The notes beneath the pieces are model-generated. The model did no database searches and had not been told where the DNA came from. It saw only the letters and a program-made list of their open reading frames with translations. The translations under genes and the position numbers were made by a program. A DNA stretch of 64,000 bases. Origin: an uncultured bacterium (GTDB lineage Bacteria > Edwardsbacteria > CAYGWX01). Location of the stretch: positions 139,389 through 203,388 of the forward strand of contig CAYGWX010000001.1 in NCBI GenBank assembly GCA_964353855.1. Reading direction: 5' to 3'. Shown here one piece after another: positions 1 through 61,398 of the stretch (positions within the stretch are counted from its first letter, which is position 1; every line of letters starts with the position of its first letter).

Positions 1-65
1 GGAGGCTGATCAACTGGTTCGCCACCGGGACGTTCGAAGTCAAAGGCTACCACCCGCCGGAGTAG
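1..65 (+). CDS. 3' end of an unidentified gene (partial, ...RLINWFATGTFEVKGYHPPE*)
   Basis: Open frame 3 with GC-rich codon usage, ending TAG at 63-65. Confidence 0.45.
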   Translation, partial: RLINWFATGTFEVKGYHPPE

Positions 66-117
66 GGTCGGGCCTTTCAATATCTCAATTTTTTAAGAAA
101 GGGCCTGCTTAAAGGTT

Positions 118-246
118 CAACAAAGCCAACCTATCACCCGCCAAAGACTTACCTTCCCGCTTTTTAGCTTCAATCCGCTTTCTACATCCCGGTTTTAAAC
201 CACAACCCAAGCTGTAACAAGGCATTATCCTAACACCTCCCGAGGT
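118..246 (+). promoter_or_regulatory. Conserved leader of repeated module, copy 1
   Basis: Motif islands CAACAAAG-nn-AACCT-N10-AAAGACTTA, TTTAAA, AACCCAA and AACAC-n-TCCC-n-AGGT align without gaps to 15415-15543 (constant offset 15297). Confidence 0.7.
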
Positions 247-334
247 GTTCCCGCCAAGTTCCCACCAATTTGACGCCAATTTCACGCCAACTTCACGCCA
301 ATTTGACGCCAAGTTCACGCCAACTTGACGCTAA
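247..334. repeat. 11-bp tandem array, 8 units, consensus nTTsACGCCAA
   Basis: gttcccgccaa gttcccaccaa tttgacgccaa tttcacgccaa cttcacgccaa tttgacgccaa gttcacgccaa cttgacgctaa. Confidence 0.9.
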
Positions 335-354: not shown

Positions 355-385
355 TTGACAAAGGAGTGGTAAACACGAGTATAAT
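355..385 (+). promoter_or_regulatory. Sigma70-like promoter with 19-bp spacer
   Basis: TTGACA 355-360, TATAAT 380-385; nearly identical to 15707-15737. Confidence 0.7.
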
Positions 386-410
386 AATCAGCGCAGGCTG
401 ATTATTGGGG

Positions 411-480
411 TTAGACGGTTGGACGGTTCGACGGTTGGACAGTAAAGGAGGTTAATCGGTTAGCCGGTTAATCCGTTCAC
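411..480. repeat. Short degenerate 8-mer repeats (TTnGACGG-type)
   Basis: ttagacgg ttggacgg ttcgacgg ttggacag, then ttaatcgg ttagccgg ttaatccg. Confidence 0.6.
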
Positions 481-535: not shown

Positions 536-1183
536 ATGGCAAAGGTAAGGTCGCCCCTGCACAGCATCGGCTTGCGGGGCCGGATGGCGGACGGGTTCGT
601 GTTCACGGAATGGCGGGGGATCAGCTGCATGCGAACCTTCGTGATGCCCAGCCAGCCCAGGACCCAGAGGAGAGAGCAGGTCTGGAAGACCACGCCTGTC
701 GTGACCCGGGCCTGGGCAGGCCTATCGGACCCGGAGAGAGCACAGTGGGACGCGTTCACACTTCTGGTCAAGCCGATAGACCCCACCCTGGGAAGGGAGA
801 GCCACTGGTCCGGGTACAACGCCTATCTCTCCGTGAACCGGGTCCTGGCCGACGCGGGGTTATCCCTGGTCATCCAGCCCCCGGGCATCCCCCAGCCCAA
901 TCCGCCGGAGAGGTTCAGACTCAGAAATCCAAGCCCGGGAGTCGTGCGCATCCGCTGGGAGCCACTGCCAGCAGGGACTTTGATAGACCTCTGGCTCAAC
1001 CAGGGCAAAGCCTCCCGCAAAGCCTACCCCTCCAAGTTCAACCACCTGGTCTACGCCGACGGCACCACCGGCCTCCATGTCCTCTCGGGAATCCCTGCGG
1101 GAACAAGGGTAGCAGTCAAAGGCCGGGTCGTAAGGCCCGACGGCGGAAAGTCGTACTACGCGCAAGCCGAGATCGTTGTCTAA
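536..1183 (+). CDS. Hypothetical basic protein, module protein copy 1 (N-terminus reminiscent of DUF6266-like proteins; beta-rich C-terminus)
   Basis: RBS AAGGAG; highly similar to 15789-16436 and clearly homologous to 43825-44466. Confidence 0.85.
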   Translation: MAKVRSPLHSIGLRGRMADGFVFTEWRGISCMRTFVMPSQPRTQRREQVWKTTPVVTRAWAGLSDPERAQWDAFTLLVKPIDPTLGRESHWSGYNAYLSVNRVLADAGLSLVIQPPGIPQPNPPERFRLRNPSPGVVRIRWEPLPAGTLIDLWLNQGKASRKAYPSKFNHLVYADGTTGLHVLSGIPAGTRVAVKGRVVRPDGGKSYYAQAEIVV

Positions 1184-1554: not shown

Positions 1555-2187
1555 ATGCCTTGGTGGAGTTCAATCCCTTGGATTAAGTTACTTCCTCCCT
1601 TCTTAATGGTCGTGACTTCCTTGGTTAAGGAGGTTCTGCCCAAAGAAAGAAAGGTTTTTAAATATATACTCATACCTTTGCTGGTTCTATTCTTCCTTGC
1701 TACCGTGCTATTTATCGTTCAAGATCATCGGACCTCCATTGATTCAAAAAGGAGGGAATCAGAAGCCACCATCCAAACACATGCCGACCTCGATTCATTA
1801 AAGAGGCTATACGGCCCTATCGCAGAGATCGCCAAAGGCAAATATCCTAATTTAACAGACAAAAATGCCATTCTACAGCTTACAGCGAGAATCGAAGCAG
1901 CTGAGAAGGCTGCTAATCCAGCCCCTTTAGCAACTAGGCTTCGAGGGCTCCTTGAAGAAATTGACCCGAAAATAATCCCGGCGCTCAAGACAGGTCACAC
2001 TGGCTTTGAAGGCGGTATCACTGCATCACAGTTCACACGACTCCAGACAATTGCGAACGAAAGTGGGGCGAAGGAGTACATCAGGATCGATCCAGGGAGT
2101 GTGCGCATGGGCATCGGTATGGGCCCGGAGGGCGTGACATACAACGTAGCCTTCAAACTTAACCCCAAGTTATTACAGCAACCATGA
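1555..2187 (+). CDS. Hypothetical membrane-anchored protein (cargo, lower GC)
   Basis: 210-aa ORF, N-terminal hydrophobic helices, AT-rich codons. Confidence 0.65.
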   Translation: MPWWSSIPWIKLLPPFLMVVTSLVKEVLPKERKVFKYILIPLLVLFFLATVLFIVQDHRTSIDSKRRESEATIQTHADLDSLKRLYGPIAEIAKGKYPNLTDKNAILQLTARIEAAEKAANPAPLATRLRGLLEEIDPKIIPALKTGHTGFEGGITASQFTRLQTIANESGAKEYIRIDPGSVRMGIGMGPEGVTYNVAFKLNPKLLQQP

Positions 2188-2267
2188 CAAATGCTAAAAG
2201 AGCTAGCTGCTGGCCTGCGGGGCCACCTGCGGGTGGCCCTGGATAAGCCCAAAGAGGGAGTATCGCC

Positions 2268-3896
2268 ATGACAGAGACATATAAAAACTTGCTCTACTAC
2301 GGGGACAACCTGGATGTGATGCGGCGGCACATCAAGGAAGAGACGGTTGACCTCGTGTATCTGGACCCGCCTTTCAACTCCAATGCGAATTACAACGTCC
2401 TATTCGCGGAAAAAGATGGGAGCAAAGCCGCAAGCCAGATTCAGGCTTTTACGGACTCCTGGACATGGAACCAGGAAGGCGAATCCACATATGCCGAGAT
2501 TATGACTGCTGGGGGGCGCGTAGCCGATTGCCTTCATGCGTTCCGGACCTTCCTGGGCGAATGCGACATGCTGGCCTATCTTGTGATGATGGCCCCGCGC
2601 CTTGTGGAATTGCGGCGGGTCCTTAAGCCAACCGGAAGCATCTACTTGCACTGCGACCCGACGGCAAGCCACTACCTCAAGATGTTGATGGATGCGGTGT
2701 TTGGGGCGGTGAACTTCAGGAATGAGATCACGTGGAAGCGCACGAGCGCCCACAGCGACGTGGGACAAGGTGCCGTCCACTTGGGACGCATCCACGATAT
2801 TATCCTATGGTTCACGCGTTCTGACGCACCAGTTCGCAACCCGGTTCACCTTCCCTACTCGCCAGAATATATCGAAAAGATATTTCGGTACGTAGACGAA
2901 CACGGTCGGCGTTACCAGACCCAGCCGCTCCATGCGAAGCAACCAGGCGGCGACACTCGTTATGAGTGGAAGGGCCAGTATCCGCCGACAGGTCGCTATT
3001 GGGCGTTTTCAAGAGCGAACATGGAGAAACTGGATAGGGAAGGTCGCATTATCTACAGCAAGACCGGGGTACCCCGATACAAAATTTACCTTGATGAATC
3101 CGCGGGGAGACCGCTACAGGACCTCTGGGATGACATCAGCCCCGTCCACAATTCTCCGAAGGAACGACTTGGATATCCCACTCAGAAGCCCGAGGCGCTC
3201 TTAGAGCGCATTCTGGAACTGGGCAGCAACGAAGGCGATCTGGTGCTTGACCCGTTCTGTGGCTGCGGGACCACGATTGCCGCCGCGCAGAAGTTGGGCC
3301 GCTCGTGGATCGGGATAGACATCACGCATCTTGCCATTAACTTGATCAAGACCCGGCTCAAGGATTCCTTTGGCGAGTCCGCCGCCTACCAGGTGATAGG
3401 CGAACCCGTAAGCGTGGAGGATGCCGAACGGCTGGCCGAGTCCGAGCCATTTCAATTCCAATGCTGGGCGCTTGGTCTTGTGGGGGCCCGGCCCGGGGGT
3501 GAGCAGAAGAAGGGTGCGGACCAAGGCATTGATGGACGGATCATCTTCCAGGGGGAAAAGACAGGAACTTTTGAAAGCGTGATCCTGTCCGTGAAGGCCG
3601 GGCATACCGGAGTTGCACATGTCCGCGACCTGAAGGGCGTGCTGGAGCGGGAGAAGGCAGTGATCGGGGTCCTTATCTCGATGCAGGAGCCCACTGCACC
3701 TATGAGAACAGAAGCAGTCACGGCGGGATTCTACGAATCCGAAACCTGGGGCCAGAAATATCCAAAAGTACAGCTTCTCACTGTGGCCGAACTGCTGGCC
3801 GGGAAGAAGGTTGAAATGCCTCCGATCCGCCAAGTGAGCGCCACGTTCAAGAAGGCCCCTAAGGCGACGAAGAAAGGGGAGCAAGGGGTATTATAG
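2268..3896 (+). CDS. Amino-DNA methyltransferase (beta class) fused to C-terminal Mrr-like restriction endonuclease domain
   Basis: Motif IV DPPF, YPTQKPEALLERI, motif I DPFCGCGT; C-terminal DQGIDG...SVK resembles PD-(D/E)xK. Confidence 0.88.
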   Translation: MTETYKNLLYYGDNLDVMRRHIKEETVDLVYLDPPFNSNANYNVLFAEKDGSKAASQIQAFTDSWTWNQEGESTYAEIMTAGGRVADCLHAFRTFLGECDMLAYLVMMAPRLVELRRVLKPTGSIYLHCDPTASHYLKMLMDAVFGAVNFRNEITWKRTSAHSDVGQGAVHLGRIHDIILWFTRSDAPVRNPVHLPYSPEYIEKIFRYVDEHGRRYQTQPLHAKQPGGDTRYEWKGQYPPTGRYWAFSRANMEKLDREGRIIYSKTGVPRYKIYLDESAGRPLQDLWDDISPVHNSPKERLGYPTQKPEALLERILELGSNEGDLVLDPFCGCGTTIAAAQKLGRSWIGIDITHLAINLIKTRLKDSFGESAAYQVIGEPVSVEDAERLAESEPFQFQCWALGLVGARPGGEQKKGADQGIDGRIIFQGEKTGTFESVILSVKAGHTGVAHVRDLKGVLEREKAVIGVLISMQEPTAPMRTEAVTAGFYESETWGQKYPKVQLLTVAELLAGKKVEMPPIRQVSATFKKAPKATKKGEQGVL

Positions 3897-3953: not shown

Positions 3954-4253
3954 ATGAAAGAAAAACTTCGAGGGATTGAAGAGCGCGAAGCAAAATGGGG
4001 CCAGAAGATGATAGAGGTTAAAGTGCGTTTCTGGACCAACGGCCTTGCTGTGGTAAAAGGCAATATAAAACCGATGTATGCAAAGGGTTCGGGAGTTGTA
4101 CGAATTAAGAAAAACCGAGCTCACGGCATAACGCCGGGGCGGCCCATCCATTTCAGGTCCTTAATGGACTTACCCGCAAAGATAGAGAAGCTCCTCATCC
4201 AAGAGGGTATTTTGATCCGTCGTAGCAGGCAGATGCACAAATATATCTCCTAA
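3954..4253 (+). CDS. Small basic hypothetical protein (cargo)
   Basis: 99-aa ORF with AAGGAG RBS. Confidence 0.6.
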   Translation: MKEKLRGIEEREAKWGQKMIEVKVRFWTNGLAVVKGNIKPMYAKGSGVVRIKKNRAHGITPGRPIHFRSLMDLPAKIEKLLIQEGILIRRSRQMHKYIS

Positions 4254-4305: not shown

Positions 4306-5526
4306 GTGAAATTATTCGCGTTCTCAAAGCAACTCACGTTCTGTGTCATTTGCGGAGCAAGCATTTCCATATTACCCAGCCTTGTCGCCGCTGGCTGGGT
4401 CCCTCTAACCTCGGGCACAACCGAAGCCCTTTTCTCCGTCTATTTCCCCGTGGATGCTCTAACCGGGTATGCTGCGGGGGAGCGGGGTATCATCCTGAAA
4501 ACCACGAATGGGGGAGCAAGTTGGGTCTCCCAGAACTCGCCGACAAACGAAAATATTTTCTCCGTCTCTTTTCCCTCTGATGCCTCCACCGGGTTCGCCG
4601 TGGGTGGCTCTGGCAGAATTGAGAGGACCACGAACGGAGGCACGGACTGGGTCTCGCAAACTTCGGGTACATCCGAAATTCTTCAGTCTGTCCATTTCCC
4701 CCTGAATGTCTTAACCGGGTATGCCGTGGGGAATAGCGGTACCATCTTGAAGACCACGAATGCGGGAGCGGCATGGGTTACCCTGTCCTCGGGCACATCC
4801 ACTGCCATTTTAGCTGTCCATTTCCCTACAGATGTCTTAACCGGCTATGCCGCGGGGGGAGTCGGCACCATCCTGAAGACAACGAATGCGGGAGCGGCCT
4901 GGGTCACCCTGACCTCGGGCATACCTGTTGCGCTGAATTCTATCCATTTTCCCGTGGATGCTCTCACTGGGTATGTCGTTGGCTCTTCTGGCACTATCAT
5001 GAAGACCATGGATGGAGGAGGGGTCTGGCTCGGCCAAACATCGGGCACAACCAATTATCTTCGCTCAGTCCATTTCCCCATGAATACCTCAACCGGGTAT
5101 GCCGTTGGGGATAGCGGCACCATCCTGAAGACCACGGATGGGGGAGCGAACTGGTATCCCCAGACATCGGGCACAACCAATCATCTTTGGTCGGTCCATT
5201 TCCCCGTGGATATCTCAACTGGGTATGCTGCGGGGTGGTATGGAACCATCCTGAAGACCACAGACGGGGGGATTGGGGTGGAGGAAAACACAGAGGTTAG
5301 AGGTCAGAGGTTAGAGGTCAGAGTAACGGCAAAACCGAACCCTTTCACCACCTTCGCTCAGGTCCCCGGGCACAAGGGGGAGAGGTTCACGATGTACGAC
5401 ATCGCGGGTAGGAAGGTCGGGACGTATAAGGGAGACCGGGTCGGAGAGGGGCTGGCGCCGGGGGTGTACTTCCTCCGTACCTCAAATAACAATGATAAGC
5501 CTCTGCGGATAGTGAAGGTTAAGTAG
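4306..5526 (+). CDS. Secreted YCF48/BNR-type beta-propeller with short C-terminal sorting-like domain
   Basis: Seven ~43-aa repeats (W..SGT...L.SVHFP....TGYAVG..GTILKTTxGG); GVEE linker; PNPF...YD..GRKV...GVYF. Confidence 0.85.
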   Translation: MKLFAFSKQLTFCVICGASISILPSLVAAGWVPLTSGTTEALFSVYFPVDALTGYAAGERGIILKTTNGGASWVSQNSPTNENIFSVSFPSDASTGFAVGGSGRIERTTNGGTDWVSQTSGTSEILQSVHFPLNVLTGYAVGNSGTILKTTNAGAAWVTLSSGTSTAILAVHFPTDVLTGYAAGGVGTILKTTNAGAAWVTLTSGIPVALNSIHFPVDALTGYVVGSSGTIMKTMDGGGVWLGQTSGTTNYLRSVHFPMNTSTGYAVGDSGTILKTTDGGANWYPQTSGTTNHLWSVHFPVDISTGYAAGWYGTILKTTDGGIGVEENTEVRGQRLEVRVTAKPNPFTTFAQVPGHKGERFTMYDIAGRKVGTYKGDRVGEGLAPGVYFLRTSNNNDKPLRIVKVK

Positions 5527-15399: not shown

Positions 15400-15414
15400 A
15401 TTGGAATAAAAGGT

Positions 15415-15543
15415 CAACAAAGTTAACCTCCATTTTTTAAAAGACTTAGAGGTAGACTTTTAAAACCCAGCCCTCCTCAAAGCCACCCTCTTTAAAGCGT
15501 AACCCAAAGCAAACCAACATGCTGTACGAACACATCCCAAGGT
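15415..15543 (+). promoter_or_regulatory. Conserved leader of repeated module, copy 2
   Basis: Gap-free colinear with 118-246. Confidence 0.7.
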
Positions 15544-15653
15544 GGTCTCACGGTGTTCTGACGGTCTTCCGACGGTGTTCTGGCGGTATTCTGGCGGTGT
15601 TCCGGCGGTATTCTCGCGGTATTCAGGCGGTATTCCCGAGGTCTTCCCTCGGT
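15544..15653. repeat. 11-bp tandem array, 10 units, consensus nTTCnnnCGGT
   Basis: ggtctcacggt gttctgacggt cttccgacggt gttctggcggt attctggcggt gttccggcggt attctcgcggt attcaggcggt attcccgaggt cttccctcggt. Confidence 0.9.
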
Positions 15654-15706: not shown

Positions 15707-15737
15707 TTGACAAAGGAATGGTAAACACGATTATAAT
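15707..15737 (+). promoter_or_regulatory. Sigma70-like promoter with 19-bp spacer, copy 2
   Basis: TTGACA-aaggaatggtaaacacgat-TATAAT. Confidence 0.7.
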
Positions 15738-15788
15738 AGGGATGTGAAAAGTGAAGCGTGAAATGTGAAAGGTAGAAAGGAGTAAAAG

Positions 15789-16436
15789 ATGGCAAAGGTA
15801 AGAGCGCCGTTACACAGCATGGACCTGCGGGGAAGGATGGCCGACGGGTTCGTGTTCTCGGACTGGAAGGGCATCCCCTGGATGAGGACCTTCATCATGC
15901 CCAGCCAGCCCAGGACCGCAAGGAGGGAAGCGATGTGGGCCACCTTCCCCAAGGTCAGTCGGGAATGGGCCAAGCTCACGGATTCGGACCGGACCAGGTG
16001 GGACGAGTTCGCCGTCCTGATCAAGCCCATGAACCACACCCTGGGACGAAAAGGCAACTGGTCGGGTTTCGACGCCTACGTGTCCATGAACACCGTCCTG
16101 GGAGACGCGGGACTGGCCCTCGTCACCCTGCCCCCGGCACTGCCCCTGCCCAACCCGCTGGAGAGGTTCAGACTCAGAAACCCAGCCCCGGGAGTCGTCA
16201 GAATAAGGTGGGAGCTGTTACCAGCCGGGACCCTCGTAGACCTCTGGCTCAACCAAACCAAAGCCTCCCGCAAAGCCTACCCCTCCAAGTTCAACCACCT
16301 GGTCTATGCCGACGGCACCACCGGCCTCCACGTCCTCACCGGAATCCCAGCCGGAATGAGGGTGGCCGTGAAAGGAAGGGTCGTAAGGCCGGATGGAGGA
16401 AAGTCGTATTACGTGCAGGCGGAGATCATAGTCTAA
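15789..16436 (+). CDS. Hypothetical basic protein, module protein copy 2
   Basis: 215 aa, colinear paralogue of 536-1183. Confidence 0.85.
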   Translation: MAKVRAPLHSMDLRGRMADGFVFSDWKGIPWMRTFIMPSQPRTARREAMWATFPKVSREWAKLTDSDRTRWDEFAVLIKPMNHTLGRKGNWSGFDAYVSMNTVLGDAGLALVTLPPALPLPNPLERFRLRNPAPGVVRIRWELLPAGTLVDLWLNQTKASRKAYPSKFNHLVYADGTTGLHVLTGIPAGMRVAVKGRVVRPDGGKSYYVQAEIIV

Positions 16437-16749: not shown

Positions 16750-17373
16750 ATGGCACGGTCAAATATTACGATTGAGGGTTTGAAAAACATAAGAGACCAA
16801 GTCGTTTTTGACCTGACAAATGCAGCACACATTGACAATGTGTTTTGGCAGATCCAAGCCATTTTTGAAAATAACCCCGAAATAAATACAGGCGGTATTT
16901 TTCAAGAATGGTTAGTGGATACTTACGTTGATTCAATTACTGTTCGACTTCGCCGCCTTGCAGATAAAGGAAAGAAGAAGATATCTTTATGGCGTCTTCT
17001 TGAAGATTGGAAACGAGACATCGAAAACATTAGGCCTAAGTCAGCAACTAAAGCTGAAATAACAGCTAAACAACAAGAATTAACTAATGCTTTAAATCGT
17101 GTTGAAAGCTATGCTAACTCTAACATAGCCCACCGCGCCCAGAAACCACAGGTTACTGAGCTAACTTATCTTGAGGTCCGCAAAGCTTTGATTTCTACTT
17201 TCAAGATATTTAATTGGTGTTCTTATTTGTTAACTAAATCCGTGTGGGCCACTCCTGTCCCATTGCTTGAGGAAAGTTGGCTTGCTATTTTCAAAGTACC
17301 TTGGCTTAAAGATTCGGCCCCTCCACCTTATAAACACCTCGATAAATTACTCAAGGAGGCTAATGATGGGTAA
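16750..17373 (+). CDS. AT-rich hypothetical protein, possibly AbiU2/HEPN-like (cargo)
   Basis: All-helical; LRRLAD...ISLWRLL and N..IAH resemble AbiU2-type HEPN proteins; much lower GC than flanks. Confidence 0.6.
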   Translation: MARSNITIEGLKNIRDQVVFDLTNAAHIDNVFWQIQAIFENNPEINTGGIFQEWLVDTYVDSITVRLRRLADKGKKKISLWRLLEDWKRDIENIRPKSATKAEITAKQQELTNALNRVESYANSNIAHRAQKPQVTELTYLEVRKALISTFKIFNWCSYLLTKSVWATPVPLLEESWLAIFKVPWLKDSAPPPYKHLDKLLKEANDG

Positions 17374-17470: not shown

Positions 17471-18874
17471 ATGAAAAGAATAACAACGATCCTCTGGATT
17501 GTTACTCTTTTCTTCGCTTCCTTCACCCATGCCCAGCAGAAGTGGACCAGGATCTACGGAGGGACAGGCGACGATAGAGGCAACTCTGTCCAGCAGACCT
17601 CAGATGGCGGCTACATCATTGCTGGATATACTACTTCCTACGGGGCAGGGCACGATGATGTCTACCTCGTCAAAACTAACGCTTTAGGGGATACCCTCTG
17701 GACCAGAACCTATGGAGGGTCAGGTTGGGACGAGGGCAACTCCGTCCAGCAGACCTCGGATGGGGGCTATATCGTCGCGGGTTATACTACGTCAGGTGAT
17801 GCTGATGTCTACCTTATAAAAACAAATACCACAGGGGATACCCTCTGGACAAGAACCTATGGAGGGAACTTCGACGATCAAGGATACTTTGTCCAGCAGA
17901 CCACGGATGGGGGCTATATCATCACAGGATCCACCTACTCCTATGGGATAGGCAACTACCTTGTCTACCTTATCAAGACCAATGCCTCCGGGGATACCCT
18001 CTGGACCAGGACCTACGGAGGAACGCGCGGCGATTGGGGCTTCTCCGTACAGCAGACCATAGATGGAGGCTACGTCATCGCAGGAAGGACAGACTCCTTC
18101 GGCGCAGGCAGCGAGGATGTCTACCTCATCAAGACTAATACCTCAGGAGCTACCCTCTGGACCAAGACCTACGGGGGGACAAACGAAGATGAGGGCTGGT
18201 CCGTACAACAAACTTCTGACACGGGCTACATCGTTGCGGGATGGACCCGTTCGTTCGGAATCAGTTATCAGGTCTACCTGATCAAGACCAACGCCGGGGG
18301 TGATACCCTCTGGACACGAACCTACGTAGGGTTGAGCGGCGCTGAGGGCTACTCCGTACAGCAGACCTCGGAAGGGGGCTACATCGTCGCAGGATTCACA
18401 GGCGCCTTCCCTTATGATGTCTACCTCATAAAGACGAATGCTTTAGGGGATACGCTCTGGACCAAGACTTACGGAGGGACGAACAGCGATGAGGGCCGCT
18501 CCGTCAAGCAGACCTTGGATGGGGGCTACATCATCACTGGTTATACCGATTCTTACGGGAACGGCAACCCAGATGTCTACCTCATCAAGACGGATGCGAA
18601 CGGGAATATCGGAGTAGAAGAGAACGCAGAGGTTAGAGGTCAGAGGGTAGAGGGAAGAATAACGGCGAAACCAAATCCCTTTTCATCCTTCGCCACTCTT
18701 CCCGGGCATGAGGCCGAGCGGTTCAGCCTCTACGACGTCTCCGGACGGAAGGTCGGGACCTTTCGGGGCGACCGGGTCGGGGAGGGGCTGGCGCCGGGGG
18801 TGTACTTCGTGTGTAAGGGCACGGCATGCCGTGCCCCTACCACCGCGCCCCTGCGCATCGTGAAAGTGAGGTAA
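17471..18874 (+). CDS. Secreted beta-propeller (WTRTYGG...QQTSDGGYI repeats) with short C-terminal sorting-like domain
   Basis: Signal peptide; seven ~50-aa repeats; C-terminal domain closely similar to that of 4306-5526. Confidence 0.88.
   Translation: MKRITTILWIVTLFFASFTHAQQKWTRIYGGTGDDRGNSVQQTSDGGYIIAGYTTSYGAGHDDVYLVKTNALGDTLWTRTYGGSGWDEGNSVQQTSDGGYIVAGYTTSGDADVYLIKTNTTGDTLWTRTYGGNFDDQGYFVQQTTDGGYIITGSTYSYGIGNYLVYLIKTNASGDTLWTRTYGGTRGDWGFSVQQTIDGGYVIAGRTDSFGAGSEDVYLIKTNTSGATLWTKTYGGTNEDEGWSVQQTSDTGYIVAGWTRSFGISYQVYLIKTNAGGDTLWTRTYVGLSGAEGYSVQQTSEGGYIVAGFTGAFPYDVYLIKTNALGDTLWTKTYGGTNSDEGRSVKQTLDGGYIITGYTDSYGNGNPDVYLIKTDANGNIGVEENAEVRGQRVEGRITAKPNPFSSFATLPGHEAERFSLYDVSGRKVGTFRGDRVGEGLAPGVYFVCKGTACRAPTTAPLRIVKVR
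18813..18840. repeat. REP-like palindrome inserted in frame within CDS
   Basis: gtaagggcacggcatgccgtgcccctac (GTAG-type REP architecture). Confidence 0.7.
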
Positions 18875-19074: not shown

Positions 19075-20253
19075 ATGCGGAAAGCCCTGATTACCCTGGC
19101 CTTCCTCGCCCTGGTTGCTTCGCTTACCCAAGCGAACTCCGACGCCCCCCTGCCCATCGCCCCCGCCACGAACGTCATCGCCCAGGACACCCCGAACGAC
19201 GGGGGGAACTCCATAGACCTGCGATGGACCCTGTCCGCGGATGACCGGGCCGGGGGCGGAAGAATCACGGGCTACGAGATCCTGCGGGCCGACTCCCCGG
19301 ACGGCCCGTTCGACAAGGTCGGGAGCGTGGGGACCGGGGAGGCCAGCTACACCGACGCCAGCGTCCGGGACGGAAAGCCCTATTATTACAAGATCGCGGC
19401 CATCGGCCCGGAGCAGGGCGCGGAAAGCGCGGCTTCCGAGCCGGTGAAATCCTCCCCCTCCTGGTTCAACCTCCAGAGGGTGAACATGCTCATCGCCGTG
19501 ATCCTGGCCTGCGGGCTGGTGCTGTGGTTCATCTTCCACGCCAAGCAGGGCAAGGAGCTGTTCATCCGGCGGATCGCCGGGCTCTCGGCCGTGGACGAGG
19601 CCCTGGGACGGGCCACGGAGATGGGCAGGCCGGTCCTGTTCCTGCCCTCGGGAGGCCTGGCCGCAGTCTCGGACATCCAGACTCTGGCGGGCCTGATCAT
19701 CCTCGGGCAGGTGGCCAAGAAGACCGCGGAGTTCGACACCCCGCTCCTGGTCCCGGTCTCGGACCCCCTGGTGATGACCCTGGCCCGGGAGATCGTGAAG
19801 ACCTCCTACACCGACGCCGGCAGGCCGGACGCGTTCCGGCCGGAAAACATCCGCTACCTGACCAACGAGCAGTTCGCCTACACCGCCGGGGTGGACGGGA
19901 TCATGCTGCGCGAGAAGCCGGCCGCGAACTTCATGATCGGGACGTTCTACGCCGAGTCCCTGATCCTGGCCGAGACCGGCTACTCCACGGGGGCGATCCA
20001 GATCGCGGGCACGGCGCAGATCTCGCAGCTGCCTTTCTTCGTGGCCGCCTGCGACTACACCCTGATCGGGGAGGAGATCTACGCGGCTTCGGCCTACCTC
20101 TCCAGGGAGCCGGTGCTCCTGGGAAGCCTCAAAGGGCAGGACTGGGGCAAGGCGATCGCCATTCTGGCTGTCGCCCTGGGCGTGATCCTGGAAACAGTTG
20201 CGCTCAAGGCCCCGGCCTTGCATTTCTTCGTGAACCTGTTCACCTCGCGATGA
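19075..20253 (+). CDS. Fibronectin type III plus DUF6754-like membrane protein (set 1, gene A)
   Basis: Signal peptide, FN3-like domain, IRRIAGL.AVDEA.GRATEMG, AESLILAETG, QLPFF...CDYTLIGEE.YAASAYL. Confidence 0.85.
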   Translation: MRKALITLAFLALVASLTQANSDAPLPIAPATNVIAQDTPNDGGNSIDLRWTLSADDRAGGGRITGYEILRADSPDGPFDKVGSVGTGEASYTDASVRDGKPYYYKIAAIGPEQGAESAASEPVKSSPSWFNLQRVNMLIAVILACGLVLWFIFHAKQGKELFIRRIAGLSAVDEALGRATEMGRPVLFLPSGGLAAVSDIQTLAGLIILGQVAKKTAEFDTPLLVPVSDPLVMTLAREIVKTSYTDAGRPDAFRPENIRYLTNEQFAYTAGVDGIMLREKPAANFMIGTFYAESLILAETGYSTGAIQIAGTAQISQLPFFVAACDYTLIGEEIYAASAYLSREPVLLGSLKGQDWGKAIAILAVALGVILETVALKAPALHFFVNLFTSR

Positions 20254-24570: not shown

Positions 24571-25734
24571 ATGCGGACGCTTAGTTTGTTTAGGGATCAT
24601 CGTAAGCACCAGGGCCTGAAGGCCCTGTTGCTCTTTGTGCTGCTGGCTTTCCTGGCCCCGCCCTCCTCTGCAGCCTTAGCGCCTCCGGAAAGCATCAAGG
24701 CCTTCGATACCCCGAACGATGCCGGAGGTACGATCACCATCACCTGGAAGGCCTCCCCGGACGACAGCCAGCTTTTGGGCTATTCGGTGAAGCGCAGTGC
24801 AAAGCCGGAGGGGCCATATCAGGAGGCCGGGATCGTGCTCAAGGGCCAGGAGGAGTACCAGGACGGGGAGCTCGCCGACGGACAGACTTACTACTACCGC
24901 GTGGACGCCCGGGTCCTGGGAGACTCGGCCTCGTCCGCCCTTTCCGGGCCGGCCATGCCTTCGGCCCAGTGGTTCAATCTGGGGCGGGTAAGCGTCTTAG
25001 CCTTCATCGTGCTCTTCGCGGGGGTGGTACTCTGGTATATTGCCCGGGCGAAAAAAGGGGAGAAACTCTTCATCCGCCGGATCGCCGGGCTGGACGCGGT
25101 GGATGAGGCCGTGGGACGGTCCACGGAGATGGGCCGGCCGTTGATGTTCATCTCGGGCCTCCTGTCCATCGATGACGTCACCACCCTGGCCGCGCTCACC
25201 ATCCTGGGGCGGGTGGCCCGCAAGGCCGCGGAGTACGATACCCCGATCCTGGTGCCCTGCACCGACCCCCTGGTGATGACCACGGCGCAGGAGATCGTGA
25301 AGCAATCCTATTCCGAGGCCGGCAGGCCGGACGCCTACCGGGAGGGGAACATCTCCTACCTGACCTACGACCAGTTCGGATACGCCGCGGGATGCGACGG
25401 GATAATGCTCCGCGAGAAGCCCGGGGCGGTGTTCCTGCAGGGGTATTTCTACGCCGAGTCCCTGATCCTGGCCGAGACCGGGCATTCCATCGGGGCGATC
25501 CAGATCGCGGGCACCACCGCGGTGGACCAGCTGCCCTTCTTCGTGACGGCCTGCGATTACACCCTGATCGGGGAGGAGATGTACGCGGCGTCCTCCTATC
25601 TGACCCGGGAGCCGATCATGCTCGGGACCTTGAAGGGTGAAGACCTGATGAAGCTCCTGATCGTCCTGGCGTTGACGGTCGGGGTGGTGCTGGAGACCTT
25701 CGGGAAGCACTGGATCCAGGCTTTATTCCAATAA
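24571..25734 (+). CDS. Fibronectin type III plus DUF6754-like membrane protein (set 2, gene A)
   Basis: Colinear paralogue of 19075-20253. Confidence 0.85.
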   Translation: MRTLSLFRDHRKHQGLKALLLFVLLAFLAPPSSAALAPPESIKAFDTPNDAGGTITITWKASPDDSQLLGYSVKRSAKPEGPYQEAGIVLKGQEEYQDGELADGQTYYYRVDARVLGDSASSALSGPAMPSAQWFNLGRVSVLAFIVLFAGVVLWYIARAKKGEKLFIRRIAGLDAVDEAVGRSTEMGRPLMFISGLLSIDDVTTLAALTILGRVARKAAEYDTPILVPCTDPLVMTTAQEIVKQSYSEAGRPDAYREGNISYLTYDQFGYAAGCDGIMLREKPGAVFLQGYFYAESLILAETGHSIGAIQIAGTTAVDQLPFFVTACDYTLIGEEMYAASSYLTREPIMLGTLKGEDLMKLLIVLALTVGVVLETFGKHWIQALFQ

Positions 25735-33712: not shown

Positions 33713-33737
33713 CTCTTCGGGGAATGAAGACCACCGT

Positions 33738-33935
33738 CTGCGACGGACGGGCCTCCGTCTGGGGCGGACAGACCTCTCGCTGCAGCGGACAGACTTCTGG
33801 CTGCGACAGACAGACGTCTCGCTGCGACAGACAGACATCTCGCTGGGGCGGACAGACTTCTGGCTGCGGCAGACAGACGTCTCGCTGCGACAGACAGACG
33901 TCTCGCTGCGACAGATAGACCTCTCGCTGCGACAG
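33738..33935. repeat. 21-bp tandem array, 9 units plus partial, consensus CTGCGACAGACAGACnTCTCG
   Basis: Direct reading of units 33738-33926. Confidence 0.9.
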
Positions 33936-38000: not shown

Positions 38001-39758
38001 ATGACCATTAAACCCCTGTCAGCGCAAGGCTTCAAACCCAGCCGCGTTCAGGGGCTTTTGCATTCCTGGGCCCGGCTCGTCTTTCGTCTCTTTTCTTCCC
38101 TCTCCCGTCTTCCCTGGCTTTTCTGCATCCGTTCGAATCGTCGTTCAATTCGCAATTCGCAATTCGAAATCCGAAATGCAGTTCGCCTTTTCTCCCGTGC
38201 CCCCGCGCTCCCCGGCTCCCATGCTCTTGTTTTCTCCCCTGCCCCCCTGCTCCCTTGCTCCCGTGCTCTGCTGTTTCTTTTCTCCCTGGCTCCCTTGCTC
38301 CCCTGCTCCCCTTCAGCCGTTCACGCTCAGCCCGGCTGGGACCCAGAGCAGCAGGTGACGAGCATACGCGGTGCAGCCGTTTCACCCCGGGTTGCAGCGG
38401 TCGGAGATACGATTCACTTGGTTTTCTGGGAAACGGCCCTGGACAGCCAGGGGGTATATCAAGAGTGCTACTACCTCTGCAGCACGGATGCTGGGACGAC
38501 CTGGGGATTACCTGTGATGATTAGCCCGAGGGATAGTATTAGCTCCGTTAACCCCTGCGTAGTCGTGTCGGGTCAGGTTGTGCATATCATTTGGTCTGAC
38601 ATGGGCGGTGCTCCCGCTCCTCATTACATCCGCTACCGCCGGAGCATGGACGGGGGCCGTACGTGGGGCCAAGTGGACACCATTTTTCGTGATGCAGGTA
38701 CGTCCAATTGGATCTCTCTGTCAGGGGACACCGTGTACATCGTGGCAGTGAAAGCCTTCGCCAGCGGGGCTTATTTCGCAAAGAGCACAGACGCTGGTGC
38801 GTCGTGGTCACCCAGACAGCTTATCTCAAGCGTAGGGGTCGGTGGATTCAGAATATCTTCCTTCAATCGTATAATTCACATCGTCCGTGAGCGCAGTGCC
38901 CCTTCTGATGTAGTATATCTCCGGAGCACGGACGCCGGCCTGACCTGGGAAGCAGATACTGCCATTTCTGAGGTGGACTCGTTTATCAGTGTGGATCCTG
39001 CTCTTGCTCTGGATCGCCAAGGCAACCCCCATGCTACCTGGTGCGACTGGAAGTATTCTCCTTACCCCTGGACCGGGGATATCTTTCACCGCACCGGAGT
39101 AGACAGTGGGGTGAATTGGGGCGTCATTGACAGTTTGACCGTGTTGCACCGCGCCTATACCTCGGACATTTTGGCCGTAAGGGATACCTTGCATTTGGCC
39201 TGGGAGGACGAGCGGGATGACCCGGGTTCCGTTTATCCCGAGGTCTACTATCGGATGAGCGCGAATTTGGGCCTTTCCTGGGGTCCGGAGTACCGGCTGA
39301 CCTATGCCCGCCGAGCTAGCCGTAACCCCTCGCTAACGGTAACCTACAACTATCTCCATCTTTTCTGGGCAGATGACCGGGATACTACAGTTGGGCAGGT
39401 CATTTATCACCGCCGTAAATCCAGGCTGGTAGGAGTGGAAGAAAAAGGTTCGGTTATCAGGACTCTGAAGGATCTGCGGCTGTTGTTGGTGGTTTCCCCT
39501 AACCCTGCTTCTGAGGTGTGTCTCATTTCATTTGGGGCTCGACTTTCTACCGAAGCCGTGGTCAAGGTTTACGACATTTTGGGCCGGGAGATGAGGAGGA
39601 TTCGGGTGAAGGAGACTGACCGGGTTTCCTGGGATTTGACCGATGATAAAGGGAAGGAAGTGAGGAACGGGGTTTACTACGTTCAGGTGGAGTCCGGGGG
39701 GGCGGTAAGCGTCAAAAGGAAGCTTACCGTCCTGAGAAAGAGTCACTCAAGGAATTAA
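38001..39758 (+). CDS. Secreted BNR/sialidase-like beta-propeller with T9SS-like C-terminal domain (start uncertain)
   Basis: Asp-box repeats S.DAG.TW; GVEE; PNP...YDILGR...GVYYV. Confidence 0.8.
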   Translation: MTIKPLSAQGFKPSRVQGLLHSWARLVFRLFSSLSRLPWLFCIRSNRRSIRNSQFEIRNAVRLFSRAPALPGSHALVFSPAPLLPCSRALLFLFSLAPLLPCSPSAVHAQPGWDPEQQVTSIRGAAVSPRVAAVGDTIHLVFWETALDSQGVYQECYYLCSTDAGTTWGLPVMISPRDSISSVNPCVVVSGQVVHIIWSDMGGAPAPHYIRYRRSMDGGRTWGQVDTIFRDAGTSNWISLSGDTVYIVAVKAFASGAYFAKSTDAGASWSPRQLISSVGVGGFRISSFNRIIHIVRERSAPSDVVYLRSTDAGLTWEADTAISEVDSFISVDPALALDRQGNPHATWCDWKYSPYPWTGDIFHRTGVDSGVNWGVIDSLTVLHRAYTSDILAVRDTLHLAWEDERDDPGSVYPEVYYRMSANLGLSWGPEYRLTYARRASRNPSLTVTYNYLHLFWADDRDTTVGQVIYHRRKSRLVGVEEKGSVIRTLKDLRLLLVVSPNPASEVCLISFGARLSTEAVVKVYDILGREMRRIRVKETDRVSWDLTDDKGKEVRNGVYYVQVESGGAVSVKRKLTVLRKSHSRN

Positions 39759-39789: not shown

Positions 39790-42700
39790 ATGAAACCGAA
39801 CAGGATCGTTCTATTAACTCTGGGGCTGGTTGTTTTGACCGCCCTCACCGGGTTTAGTGCCCAGTGGATTCCCACGCTCGGCCCGCCCAACGCCCATGTC
39901 AATGGGCTTTCCGCTGGGATGTCGGGGTTTGTTCCCTACATCTACGCTGCGGATGAGCAATCTCATACCTACAACAGTGTAAACAACGGGGAAACCTGGA
40001 CTCCTTCAAGCGATCAACGGTCCGCAGGCCCCTTCTGTGTGGTCACCGCCCCCAACGACGCCAACATCGTCTACATCGGCCGGGATTACGACCCGAACTA
40101 TCCAGAAAAGGTCTACCGGTCCACAAACGGCGGAGGTGATTGGGGTCCTCGCGGTACTGGCATCACCAACCGCTATCCTCGGTGCCTGACGATGTTCTCT
40201 GACCTGAGCCACCTGTACTTGGGCTGCTTCAATGATGGCAACTCTCCGCCCTCTGTGTTCAAGACCCTGGACGGGGGTGCGACCTGGCAGTCCGCCTCCG
40301 GGACTCAACTAACCAACAAGAGGGTCAGCGGCATCAAGGTTCACCCCACGAACTACCAGATCGTCTTTGCTGCGGTGACCTCAGGCGGGCATGGCGTTTG
40401 GAAGTCCCAAGACGGGGGTAACTCGTGGTCTCAGAAGCTCACCACCCCGGTGGACGTCTTTTCCCTGGCCTTCGCTCCCACCGATCCCAGCATCCTGTAT
40501 GCCGGGGGTTCGGATGGGGTCTACAAGAGCTTGAACGCTGGGGAAAGTTGGAATTTGATTTCCGGTTCACCCCAGAGGGTGCTTGCGATTCTCGTGGATC
40601 CCAATACGAATTCCATCGTCTACGCTGGCAACGGCGAGGGGGTTTATAAGAGCGAGAGTGCCGGGTCCTCTTGGACCCTCTCCAGGAACGGGATGCCTGA
40701 TAAAAACCGGTACGTTCTCTCCCTTGTTTTCCACCCTCAGAATTCTTCGGTCCTGCTCGCTGGTGTCAAACAGGGCCTCTTCAAGAGCCAAAATCAGGCT
40801 CAATCGTGGATTCAGACGACCAAAGGGTTCAAGACGGCCATTGTAGACGAGGTTTCTACCAACTTCTTCCAGATTGGTCAACCGCCTTACCTCTATGTGG
40901 CCGGGCGTCATTCTGTAACCCCTACGTCTGTTCCGCATGTCTCAACCGATTACGGAAGCTCCTGGCTTACGATACCTCAACCCTGGGGAGAAGAGCTCGA
41001 ACCGCCTGGTCATATCTCGGTTAACCAGGTTGACGGTTCGATAGCTTATGGTGGGTGCAACAAATATTATGGCTTGTTCTGTGATTATGGAGGTGTAGTT
41101 TTTCTTACTACGAACGCCGGTTACGTTTGGGAAAAGAGATATATACCCGACATCCCGTCTGCTCCGTTCGGTGCACATCTTAGGTGTTTAGTGGCGGATC
41201 CCCTTCGCGTTGAAATCGCTTATGGAGGCTGGGAGTATTTTGATGGTGGAATTGGCAAGTATCAATTAGAGGTAATTAAAACGACTGACCGCGGCGTGAA
41301 TTGGTTTCAGTCTGCTGAGGGGATCACCCATCCCGACGTAGGTTTGTGTTTTACGATCAATCCTCAACACCCAGACTCGGTGTACCTGGGCACCCAGCTG
41401 GGGGTGCTCTACCGGAGCACCAATGCGGGGAGCTGGTGGAATAACGTCAGCAACTTCGGTGATTCCATCATCTCCCTTGCCCAGGATGGTTTCAATACCG
41501 GCACCCTCTACGTTGGCGGGAACTTCGGGGTCCAGAAGTCGATGGATCATGGTGTCAGTTGGGTGACAAGTAACACGGGCTTAAACTGTCCCAATATTTT
41601 TTGGTTGGCCATCCACCCGGCGGAGCCGGCTTTGCTGTGGGCTTCTACCAATGACGTCTACCCTCACGCTTACGTAACCGTGGATGGCGGGCTTCAGTGG
41701 ATCGAGCAGAGCAATGGTTTGCCTCCAGGTCAGGTGAGAGGTCTCTCCATTGATTGCTTTGACATGCCCGACACGGTCTGGGCTGGGGCTGGAGATGGCC
41801 TTTACACGTACAAACTCCCCTTCCAGTTTAAGTCCCTGACCTCCGCTTCCTCCAACGCTTCAGACTCCAACTCTCAGCGGAAGCTGGTCCGGCAGGAGGG
41901 GACGTCTAATCTCCATGCCGTCTATCATTCCGGGAATGCCAACGAGCGCAACGTGTACTATGTCTCATCCACGGACGGCGGGGCGACGTGGTCTCGGAAG
42001 ATCCTCCTGGGCCAAGGCGGTTTTCCGGCCATTGCCCTGGACGAAGGGGGGAATCCCCAGGTGATTTGGGTTTCTGACGGCGACAACGAATTGCGCTATG
42101 CCTATTGTCAGGGCGGGGTTTGGTCTGCGGGACAGACCCTCTATATCGCGAGCGCCAGCGATAAGATCGGTCCTCCGGCGTTTTGTGCCGTTCACTCTGT
42201 GGCCGGGTCGCGGGGCCATGTAGTGTTCAATTGGAAGTCGGGCGCCAATCAGTCCACGGCGGTCAAATACGGGTGGTTTACATTGAACATGTCCGGGACC
42301 CTGCAGAGCGTGGTGAATGTGGACAGCGGGAGCAACGGCAGTTCGTTATGCTCCTGCCCCTCTCTGGCTTACTCCTTTTCGCTGGGCAGCTACTACCTGC
42401 ACGCTTCTTGGGCCAAAGGAACCAATGTCTGGTACTCCTACAAGCAATTGGACTCCGGGCCTTGGACCAATACCAGGATTTCCCAGACCTCGGCAACCAG
42501 TGCACAACCGAATATCGAGTTCTACGGGGATGCGGTTAATGTCGCCTGGGTGCAGACGTCATCTCCCGTTAGCGTCATTAATCGCTACAGGACCTTTCCT
42601 TATGGCTCATGGAGCACTTGGAAGACCGTGAGCCAGGCTGCGGGCTGTGCTTCTCCCCAGATGGCTTCTGGAGTCTACTGCGTCTGGAACGAGGGAGATA

Positions 42701-43824: not shown

Positions 43825-44466
43825 ATGTCAAAGCTAAAAAGTCCGTTTTTCGCCCGCGAGGCGCGCGGGAGGTTTGGTAAGGATTTGGTGTATTCCTCCT
43901 GGCGGGGGATACCCTATGTGAAGGTGTTCTATCCGGCTCGTCAGAAGGATTCCCCGCGTCAGCGCGAGGTGCAGGCGTCCTTTTGTAAGTTGAACCGGGA
44001 GTGGGCGGCCCTCACCGAGGCTCAGAGGGAGGCTTGGAGGGTTTATGCCGGAAGGCAGAGGGTGCCCAATTCCGCGCATTGTCTGTTCCTCTCCTTTGCG
44101 GTTCTGGCCCAGGATGCCGGGCTTTCTCTGCCGGTCCTGCCGCCCGGGGGCAAAGCTCCCCGCGCTCCGTATCTGGCCGTAGCTTCCGGTGAGGAACCCT
44201 GTTCCGTGGTCGTCTCCTGGTCTTTTACCAAGTCCCAGAAGATACCCAACTCAGCCCTTCTGGACCTCTGGTCCTGCATGACCCTGCCCTCCCGCCAGGC
44301 CTATCTGCATCATTTCACGCATCTGACCTACGTTCCGGCCGATGCCGGAAAAGCGGCGATAAATAACCTTCCGCTAAAAAGAAGGCCCCACTTCCGGGCC
44401 CGTTTGATCCTTCCCGACTCCCGCTCCTCTCCCTTTTCCAAGACTATCGGTGCTCCACAGTCGTGA
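43825..44466 (+). CDS. Hypothetical basic protein, diverged third homologue of 536-1183 / 15789-16436
   Basis: Shared K.KSP....RGR....V...WRGI, REWAALT...R..W, DAGLSL, DLW...SR.AY...F.HL.Y. Confidence 0.8.
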   Translation: MSKLKSPFFAREARGRFGKDLVYSSWRGIPYVKVFYPARQKDSPRQREVQASFCKLNREWAALTEAQREAWRVYAGRQRVPNSAHCLFLSFAVLAQDAGLSLPVLPPGGKAPRAPYLAVASGEEPCSVVVSWSFTKSQKIPNSALLDLWSCMTLPSRQAYLHHFTHLTYVPADAGKAAINNLPLKRRPHFRARLILPDSRSSPFSKTIGAPQS

Positions 44467-44467
44467 C

Positions 44468-44522
44468 GGGCTCTGAAGGGGCTCCAAATGGGCTCTAAAA
44501 GGGCTCTAAATGGGCTCTGGGA
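44468..44522. repeat. 11-bp tandem array, 5 units, GGGCTCynnnn
   Basis: gggctctgaag gggctccaaat gggctctaaaa gggctctaaat gggctctggga, starting 1 bp after the stop codon. Confidence 0.85.
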
Positions 44523-61279: not shown

Positions 61280-61398
61280 GGAAGGTGAGGAAGGTAACAG
61301 GAAGGTAACAGGAAGGGAACAGGAAGGGAACAGGAAGGGATCAGGAAGGGTTGTGGGCGTGCAGTGGGCTTACTCTGGGCGTCTGGCGGGCGTTCAAA
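61280..61398. repeat. 11-bp tandem array drifting from GGAAGGkAACA to GGGCkT-type units
   Basis: ggaaggtaaca x2, ggaagggaaca x2, ggaagggatca, ggaagggttgt, then in-phase gggcgtgcagt gggcttactct gggcgtctggc gggcgttcaaa. Confidence 0.8.

Follow-up and report, generated by a model that had tools for sequence, protein, structure and literature searches.

How can a tandem repeat keep its period to the base pair while its sequence differs from locus to locus? The question is raised by a stretch of 64,000 nucleotides, hereafter called the window (C1:139389-203388), in the genome of an uncultured bacterium of the Edwardsbacteria lineage. The assembly comprises 2.8 Mb in 120 contigs, has a G+C content of 59% and is 87.6% complete. 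A first-pass annotation, made from the letters alone, pointed to four arrays of 11-bp units in the window, each with its own consensus, and saw in them either a phased binding or polymerisation platform of the centromere or iteron kind or the product of iterative repeat addition. Tandem Repeats Finder (TRF) finds period-11 arrays with 0% indels at all four of these places. They are members of a lineage-specific class of at least 133 non-coding, one-turn direct-repeat arrays with a degenerate core. The arrays change by gain and loss of whole units, and variants are homogenised inside each array; this is why loci differ in spelling and yet share one period. As for function, the arrays may serve as a phased binding platform for a winged-helix protein, a reading that we prefer tentatively and regard as possible rather than probable. 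The window arrays are as follows.

Array 1, 247..334, + strand: about eight units of nTTsACGCCAA at an exact 11-bp period; TRF 247-331, 7.7 copies, 82% matches
Array 2, 15541..15653, + strand: about ten units of GGTnTTCykrC (nTTCnnnCGGT) at an exact 11-bp period
Array 3, 44468..44522, unstranded: 4.6 units of GGGCTCTAAAT; TRF 44468-44518
Array 4a, 61288..61350, unstranded: 5.7 units of AGGAAGGGAAC; TRF, 96% matches
Array 4b, 61351..61394, unstranded: four 11-bp units of TGGGCGTGCAA type (..TGGGCGT..), abutting 4a; read by eye

Array 1 is the best match to the class consensus (score 12.05). Array 2 is reported by TRF as two overlapping rows, 15541-15614 and 15551-15635 (6.7 and 7.7 copies). The spelling of array 3 is found nowhere else in the genome, and this array is a singleton in the clustering of unit sequences. 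The fourth array had been described as reaching 61398, and the units read by eye indeed carry it to about 61394; two hairpins lie between a Kelch/FlgD_ig gene and array 4a. Units drift along an array with the period kept, as the first-pass annotation had it. A CRISPR array was rejected, because the units abut without spacers at a period of 11 bp.

A genome-wide class of 11-bp arrays

Genome-wide TRF with a score of at least 50 gives 586 rows in 409 clusters. Sorted by smallest period, period 11 accounts for 133 clusters, period 10 for one and period 12 for 11, and there are 48 clusters at 21 bp, 41 at 7 bp and 32 at 14 bp. All 133 period-11 arrays are intergenic by the crude gene calls of our own caller, which yields 2178 genes (82% coding) and misses atypical genes beside arrays. 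Because second-order Markov simulation of all intergenic DNA gave no period-11 row in five of five runs, chance is excluded as an explanation of the 133 real arrays. Copy number ranges from 2.7 to 10.4 per array, with a median of 4.4. The arrays are spread over at least 70 contigs. Ten of them touch contig ends; therefore, their true number is probably larger than 133. Array 3 starts 2 bp past the stop codon of the gene at 43825-44466, and arrays elsewhere in the genome also begin 2-24 bp past stop codons. The period-21 clusters, of which 23 of 48 are intergenic, form a second, two-turn class separate from the 11-bp arrays, and the period-7 and period-14 clusters are mostly intergenic.

Comparable arrays are confined to one lineage among the 41 genomes searched. 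The comparison set consisted of 40 other genomes, 18 of the same phylum and 22 more distant, none of them closer than phylum level. A pattern of five TTC at 11-bp spacing has 85 matches in this genome, against 16 for the reversed control. The same pattern has no match in any of the 18 same-phylum genomes and one match each in two of the 22 distant genomes, both in A/T-rich stretches. The portions available to us of the literature on 11-bp or undecamer tandem repeats, intergenic or promoter, contain no account of genome-wide 11-bp arrays.

A core shared by the units

When each of the 133 arrays is rotated and oriented for best fit, the core common to all of them is nTTCACGCCnA. It holds 6.44 bits, a figure somewhat inflated by duplicated arrays, versus 3.12 +/- 0.10 bits (maximum 3.31) for phase-shuffled units. 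About seven positions are constrained and four are free. TT stands at positions 2-3 in 566 of the 861 units, and the commonest cores are TTCACG (88), TTCCCG (53), TTAACA (48), TTCTCG (33) and TTCACA (26). Window arrays 3 and 4 fit a TT(A/C/T)AC-type core poorly. The claim that each locus has a consensus of its own was therefore right as to spelling but overstated, because the core is common.

The consensus alternates between A/T (positions 11, 2, 3 and 5) and G/C (positions 4, 6, 8 and 9). This alternation is what would be expected if the arrays acted through DNA structure independently of any protein, their A/T-rich and G/C-rich halves making the array anisotropically bendable or curved, so that it works as a supercoil-sensitive upstream element or as an insulator. 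The preference for period 11 over period 10, 133 to 1, would fix one handedness of writhe, and the arrays lie between a gene end and the next promoter. However, the shared TTCAC core is needless for bending alone, and there is no promoter to serve for the arrays at a distance of 2-24 bp from the end of a coding sequence, or 24 bp ahead of a start codon. Protein-independent structure is thus a very improbable explanation of the class.

The neighbouring 215-aa protein family

Three of the four window arrays do adjoin members of one protein family, as had been noticed.

536..1183, + strand: 215-aa family gene; FN3 C-terminal domain and an N-terminal domain without fold match
15789..16436, + strand: 215-aa family gene, 75% identical to 536-1183 (tblastn)
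43825..44466, + strand: distant family member, 28-30% identity to the two close genes (tblastn); genome search E 2.4e-21

Arrays 1 and 2 are located 142-205 bp upstream of their 215-aa genes. The genome contains 28 family loci (tblastn), and an array lies within 300 bp at 15 of them compared with 7.5% of called genes (binomial p 2e-10, paralogues not independent). Enrichment near the family, which the first-pass annotation had suggested looking for, is thus present on the side of the protein; on the side of the arrays, only 16 of 133 lie within 300 bp of a family member and 117 lie elsewhere, which makes the association a weak one. All six close paralogues (>70% identity) with upstream sequence have an array upstream, and the distant paralogues mostly have one 24-175 bp downstream. 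Metagenomic DNA adds 72 loci that encode 76-94% identical proteins. Among the 44 of these with at least 400 bp of upstream DNA, 42 have an array of 5-11 units within 500 bp of the start, in varying spellings such as TTCACGCCAAG, CTAATTTAACA, TTCCCGCCGTG and GTTCTCGCGGT. Array type co-varies with the promoter variant of the neighbouring paralogue.

The enrichment and this co-variation would fit the proposal that each 215-aa paralogue binds its own array, centromere- or iteron-like. In parC of plasmid R1, ParR binds ten 11-bp iterons set in two blocks of five, and the origin of Vibrio chromosome 2 has 11/12-mer repeats. The arrays described here resemble these systems in having 11-bp direct repeats in arrays of five to ten next to a promoter, and those known arrays are read by a polymerising DNA-binding protein. 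In contrast, the present arrays number 133 on the chromosome instead of one or few per replicon, 117 of them stand away from any family member, and distant paralogues have the array downstream. Furthermore, the protein models as FN3 plus a domain without a fold match. Pfam has no family for it. In the AlphaFold2 model (pLDDT 83.4), the C-terminal domain matches FN3 and the N-terminal part appears as a beta-hairpin followed by three helices, for which the best VIA-align Z is 4.3 and Foldseek gives no match at E <= 0.001. No recognised DNA-binding fold, including ribbon-helix-helix, is seen in this model, which leaves binding of the arrays by the paralogues unsupported. No partition ATPase or replication gene is present among the window genes scanned, and Pfam scans of 35 window proteins gave no Rep, ParA or ParM. 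No relatives of the 215-aa protein were found in the contigs searched for related loci or in the 40 other genomes. Binding of each array by its own paralogue is consequently the least probable of the explanations considered, and we give it hardly any credence. What survives of the functions proposed in the first-pass annotation is the phased platform, which remains the best reading; a centromere or iteron is hard to reconcile with arrays that number 133 on the chromosome and in two cases lie in or next to the cluster of complex I (nuo) genes.

Element families and the way in which arrays change

Arrays are carried by several dispersed element families, which have conserved flanks with the array at one edge and occur in both orientations.

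Type A, window arrays 1 and 2: begins with ..gcttCCCGCCAAG TTC.. units, then drifts to other spellings
Type B, window array 4: AGGAAGGGAAC units joined to TGGGCGTGCAA units
Third family: 12-bp-stem hairpin, spacer and array, the array being ACCAAGCCAGA in some copies and CTTCAAGTACG in others
30-copy (D/E) family: three units in 28 of 30 copies, with constant GCGTGA (G-rich strand) and five variable bases per unit
Module L copy 1, 115..258, + strand: nhmmer match C1:139503-139646, E 1e-27
Module L copy 2, 15412..15554, + strand: nhmmer match C1:154800-154942, E 3e-26

Type A is preceded by the 145-bp module L, found in 23 genome copies with an nhmmer profile from 16 seed copies. The 3' end of module L copy 1 consists of a short inverted repeat and the first array units. 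The first units of arrays 1 and 2 are alike and each array is preceded by a module L copy, which bears out the earlier statement that both begin from a homologous unit. The type B composite recurs at C46, C7, C73, C84, C12 and C1:40719, and TRF finds pairings like that of 4a and 4b at C1:40719-40771 with 40775-40819 and at C53:3961-4007 with 4009-4048. Single-linkage clustering, for unit sequences as well as for flanks, linked almost everything together and was left unused.

Spelling changes with the period kept even inside a single element family. In the D/E family, the five variable bases are identical across the units of one copy and different between copies. When six closely related loci are aligned, the gaps in the array measure exactly 11 and 22 bp. 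Iterative repeat addition, the other origin that had been considered, holds only in the form of ordinary slippage by whole units.

Array and promoter form the conserved core at the close-paralogue loci and the flanks are exchangeable, because five of these loci share on average 94.8% pairwise identity in the array and 94.4% in the spacer and promoter, compared with 74.1% in module L, and because at one metagenomic locus an unrelated upstream module is joined at the first unit of the same array. In two sediment runs, one contig each connects window position 67 to 218, so that 150 bp with the upstream terminator and most of module L are skipped or replaced. This is a hint that agrees with an exchangeable module L. 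The four DNA runs compared consist of short contigs of relatives in which the arrays are not resolved.

Dispersed families of this kind also suggest another origin, in which one ancestral 11-bp array spread with its carrier modules as a selfish or neutral minisatellite of the BOX/MIRU type, the period being inherited and the spelling drifting by slippage and conversion, with no reader. Pneumococcal BOX elements and mycobacterial MIRUs are intergenic repeats of this dispersed, modular kind, in which the copy number of a tandem module varies. The arrays are like them in being present in many copies, strictly intergenic (also within operons) and in both orientations, and in joining a conserved flank to a tandem part that changes by whole units, with 23 copies of module L and 30 of the D/E family. 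The homogenised D/E units, the 11- and 22-bp indels, the copies inside or beside the nuo gene cluster and the ten arrays at contig ends are all consistent with such a spread, and a shared core would be expected from common descent. However, the unit is 11 bp and not 40-53 bp, one period runs through several seemingly unrelated carrier families, and the information content is operator-like. Conservation like that of a promoter, far above that of module L, is not what a repeat without a reader would be expected to show. Likewise, 42 of the 44 related loci retain 5-11 units without a case of collapse, nearly all D/E copies have exactly three units although homogenisation implies turnover, and promoters avoid pointing into arrays. 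A minisatellite without a reader is the main alternative, though on balance an unlikely one.

Promoters and array register

The pattern TTGACA-16..18-TATAAT with at most two mismatches is intergenic in 516 of 561 matches (92%), and hence the organism uses canonical promoters. Such sigma-70-like promoters face away from an array within 200 bp at 45 of the 133 arrays (control mean 25.1, maximum 34 in 50 draws) and face into an array at four (control mean 14.2). At the close-paralogue loci, a conserved TTGACAAAGGAaTGGTAAACACGAgTATAAT site with a 19-bp spacer has five genome matches, all between an array and a family gene.

355..385, + strand: promoter-like site TTGACA-19 bp-TATAAT at the first close-paralogue locus
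15707..15737, + strand: promoter-like site TTGACA-19 bp-TATAAT at the second locus; pattern match C1:155095-155125
409..440, + strand: 8-bp tandem repeat GGTTGGAC x4 in the leader of 536-1183; TRF
15742..15770, + strand: 7-bp tandem repeat ATGTGAA x4 in the leader of 15789-16436; TRF

The distance from unit start to the start of the -35 hexamer is 9 modulo 11 in 46 of 47 loci with a TTGACAAAGGAaTGGTAAACACGAgTATAAT-type site; no recognisable promoter site is present in six of 53 loci examined. This register at the paralogue loci may be selected or merely inherited. The 19-bp spacer sequence (..TGGTAAAC..) is itself kept across the 47 loci, which suggests a further binding site or a twist-dependent promoter. 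At some loci, the upstream array has TTTCAC units complementary to the GTGAAAG heptamers of the leader.

The genes that follow module L and an array in the sense direction mostly encode surface or secreted proteins. They include the FN3 family (5) and others, and ten of the latter were scanned: four encode BNR/Sortilin-like propellers, one a CsgG-TPR protein, one a cyclase-TPR protein and one an M14 peptidase with FlgD_ig, and three have no family. The FlgD_ig C-terminal domain has 130 matches in the genome, a very large set with a secretion-tail-like domain, and 27 propeller open reading frames (ORFs) of one FlgD_ig subfamily cluster near arrays. The arrays were also considered as 3' marks of FlgD_ig secreted-protein genes, and this was rejected, because 12 of the 130 domains have an array within 600 bp downstream compared with 104 of 2178 called genes (within 550 bp).

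The arrays might instead act as RNA, supplying small RNAs or 3' untranslated regions with repeats of a single-stranded 11-nt motif, for Rho loading on the C-rich strand or as landing pads for RNA-binding proteins. Rho sites have C residues spaced about 11-13 nt, the Rho gene is present in the genome, and the C/G strand skew exceeds 0.2 in 112 of the 133 arrays. A hairpin and T run follow the array on the G-rich strand in several families; a strict scan for hairpin plus T run found few sites, at 15, 10, 9 and 5 of 133 arrays in the four arrangements, counts from which nothing is concluded here. In addition, an array within the nuo gene cluster must be transcribed. However, promoters point away from arrays, and the C-rich strand coincides with the coding strand of the tandem genes on either side in 42 cases, is opposite to it in 30 and neutral in 11, so that Rho loading is unsupported. 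RNAalifold on 27 copies of the 30-copy family gives at most one compensatory pair on either strand. Rfam has no match at gathering score in the window, and eight element loci gave two sub-threshold chance matches. CsrA, for which arrays of AGGAAGG might have been a sponge, was not found in the genome at its 87.6% completeness. The exact 11-nt unit is also left unexplained at the RNA level. All in all, action as RNA is improbable.

A candidate reader of the OmpR/PhoB type

If the arrays form a platform for a winged-helix protein, a concrete candidate for the reader is at hand. The genome has one strong Trans_reg_C domain, and it belongs to a response regulator on contig C30 whose closest solved relatives are MtrA and RegX3. 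The neighbours of this regulator are PhoU_div, a PHO4 transporter, a PAS histidine kinase, phosphate porin O/P and PstS. The DNA before the porin-pstS pair contains cTTAACAaataTTTAACAtgggCGTAACG, three units at 11-bp spacing. Three TTAACA at 11-bp spacing with at most three mismatches have 56 matches in the genome, of which 55 lie inside arrays and the other is the porin-pstS promoter. A related pattern, TTMAC-N6 x4, occurs once in each of four genomes, all from one genus of this phylum and always at the orthologous site, and the TTAAC/TTCAC box inspected in one of them stands directly upstream of an operon for a response regulator and a kinase, the regulator being 48% identical to that of this genome. 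Judged by their sequences, the arrays thus appear to use the operator grammar of the only OmpR/PhoB-type regulator in the genome.

This grammar is known from the PHO boxes of Streptomyces PhoP, B. subtilis PhoP and E. coli PhoB. In Streptomyces, PhoP binds tandem 11-nt direct repeats, G(G/T)TCAYYYR(G/C)G, with up to six per operator, and it spreads cooperatively from well-conserved core units, whereas a 10-nt unit is bound poorly; one monomer occupies each helical turn, on one face of the DNA (PMC2275107). PHO boxes and the present arrays are alike in their 11-bp direct repeats, and a period of 10-11 bp holds for all window arrays and all 133 genome arrays. The class consensus, though only a part of the units, also resembles a PHO-box unit in its 6-7 or so constrained and 4-5 free positions and its TT(A/C)AC-type core. 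Strong and weak units are mixed in one array in both, and the genome's own pho promoter has the same grammar. In contrast, known PHO operators have two to six units, serve a handful of phosphate genes and overlap the -35, whereas here there are up to ten units and 133 arrays, most of them far upstream of a promoter or unrelated to one, beside surface-protein genes and on dispersed modules. Another reader of 11-bp repeats is CarH, which binds three to five tandem repeats of nnnnTnnACAn on one DNA face (PMC9304148). TTAACA and TTCACA units fit TnnACA. CarH itself was not found, since the two MerR_1 matches (frames of 126 and 145 aa) are apart from the six B12-binding matches in this genome, which is 87.6% complete.

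Under the platform reading, the arrays would be a phased DNA track along which each helical turn takes up one monomer of a winged-helix regulator, all of them on the same face and in head-to-tail order. The best-matching units would be occupied first, and from these the protein would extend cooperatively over weaker ones, much as is the case in complex PHO-box operators. Among possible binders, the strongest candidate is the OmpR/PhoB-type response regulator, whose own operators would follow the grammar of TTAACA or TTCAC every 11 bp; this more specific assignment is itself unlikely, although it is a concrete part of the platform reading. In front of the close 215-aa paralogues and of other genes for surface proteins, the array covers roughly -65 to -150 of a TTGACA-19-TATAAT promoter, whose activity it would set there.

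Several observations weigh against this interpretation. A TT[ACT]AC[AG] core is present in just 173 of the 861 units, about a fifth, and the porin-pstS promoter site was found after the hypothesis had been formed. Phosphate function is absent from all ten scanned genes downstream of module L and an array, and PhoD and PhoX were not found in the genome at 87.6% completeness, which counts against a simple Pho reading. The orientation of arrays relative to called genes is random (63 of 120). Unlike classical Pho promoters, the paralogue promoters keep their own -35, and the array ends at least 20 bp upstream: at 46 of 47 close-paralogue loci, 20 + 11k bp separate the last TT unit from the -35 hexamer, an intact TTGACA. 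This register could have been inherited, because slippage alters length only by whole units. Outside the close-paralogue loci, 56 array-promoter pairs divide into 30 in the same and 26 in the opposite orientation, with phases spread. Finally, some arrays stand where a regulatory track would hardly be expected: five CTTCACCCTG units are located 24 bp before nuoJ in the nuo cluster, and a type E copy is found further along the nuo contig, between two ORFs of about 500 aa. One array does follow a PstS-like gene, but inside the nuo gene cluster. In that region (C55:7500-14500), the PstS-like gene is inserted between a Fer4 subunit gene and nuoJ, and the array, at 3364-3416 of the region, comes next.

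Other features of the window

Behind the two close 215-aa genes stand variable genes that, in 1555-3896 and 16750-17373, resemble defence cargo. The one behind 536-1183 encodes a fusion of a DNA methylase with an Mrr-like/NA-iREase1 nuclease domain (2268-3896), and the one behind 15789-16436 encodes a HEPN AbiU2 protein (16750-17373). Short repeats of CAGAGGT x4.7 occur at 5291-5323 and 18627-18658, close to the 3' ends of propeller ORFs. A 21-bp-period array of about 8-10 units of GACAGACGTCTCGCTGCGACA, partly palindromic, lies between two genes at 33728-33935. At 38188-38312, a C-rich repeat CTCCCCTG with periods of 8, 16 and 42 bp is found at the 5' end of ORF 38001-39758, before the called start at 38418. 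The window also contains a paralogous pair of DUF6754 genes, 19075-20253 and 24571-25734, 4 kb apart.

Implications

The candidate reader is concrete. The arrays appear to share its operator grammar, and its canonical site is the sole look-alike outside the arrays. At its furthest, the platform reading would mean that in one deep-branching lineage from sediment the PHO-box grammar has become a genome-wide lattice, whose arrays, numbering over 130, have up to ten one-turn units each and are carried on mobile intergenic modules. A single response regulator, or another winged-helix protein, would polymerise before surface-protein modules as a chromatin-like, dose-sensitive switch and sink, the length and spelling of each array would set the threshold of its locus, and slippage would retune it. 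This full picture is decidedly unlikely. If the candidate reader is borne out, the arrays would show how a two-unit operator can grow into a polymerisation track that spans the genome and is tuned by slippage. If it fails, the arrays would be a clean minisatellite family whose period, not sequence, persists.

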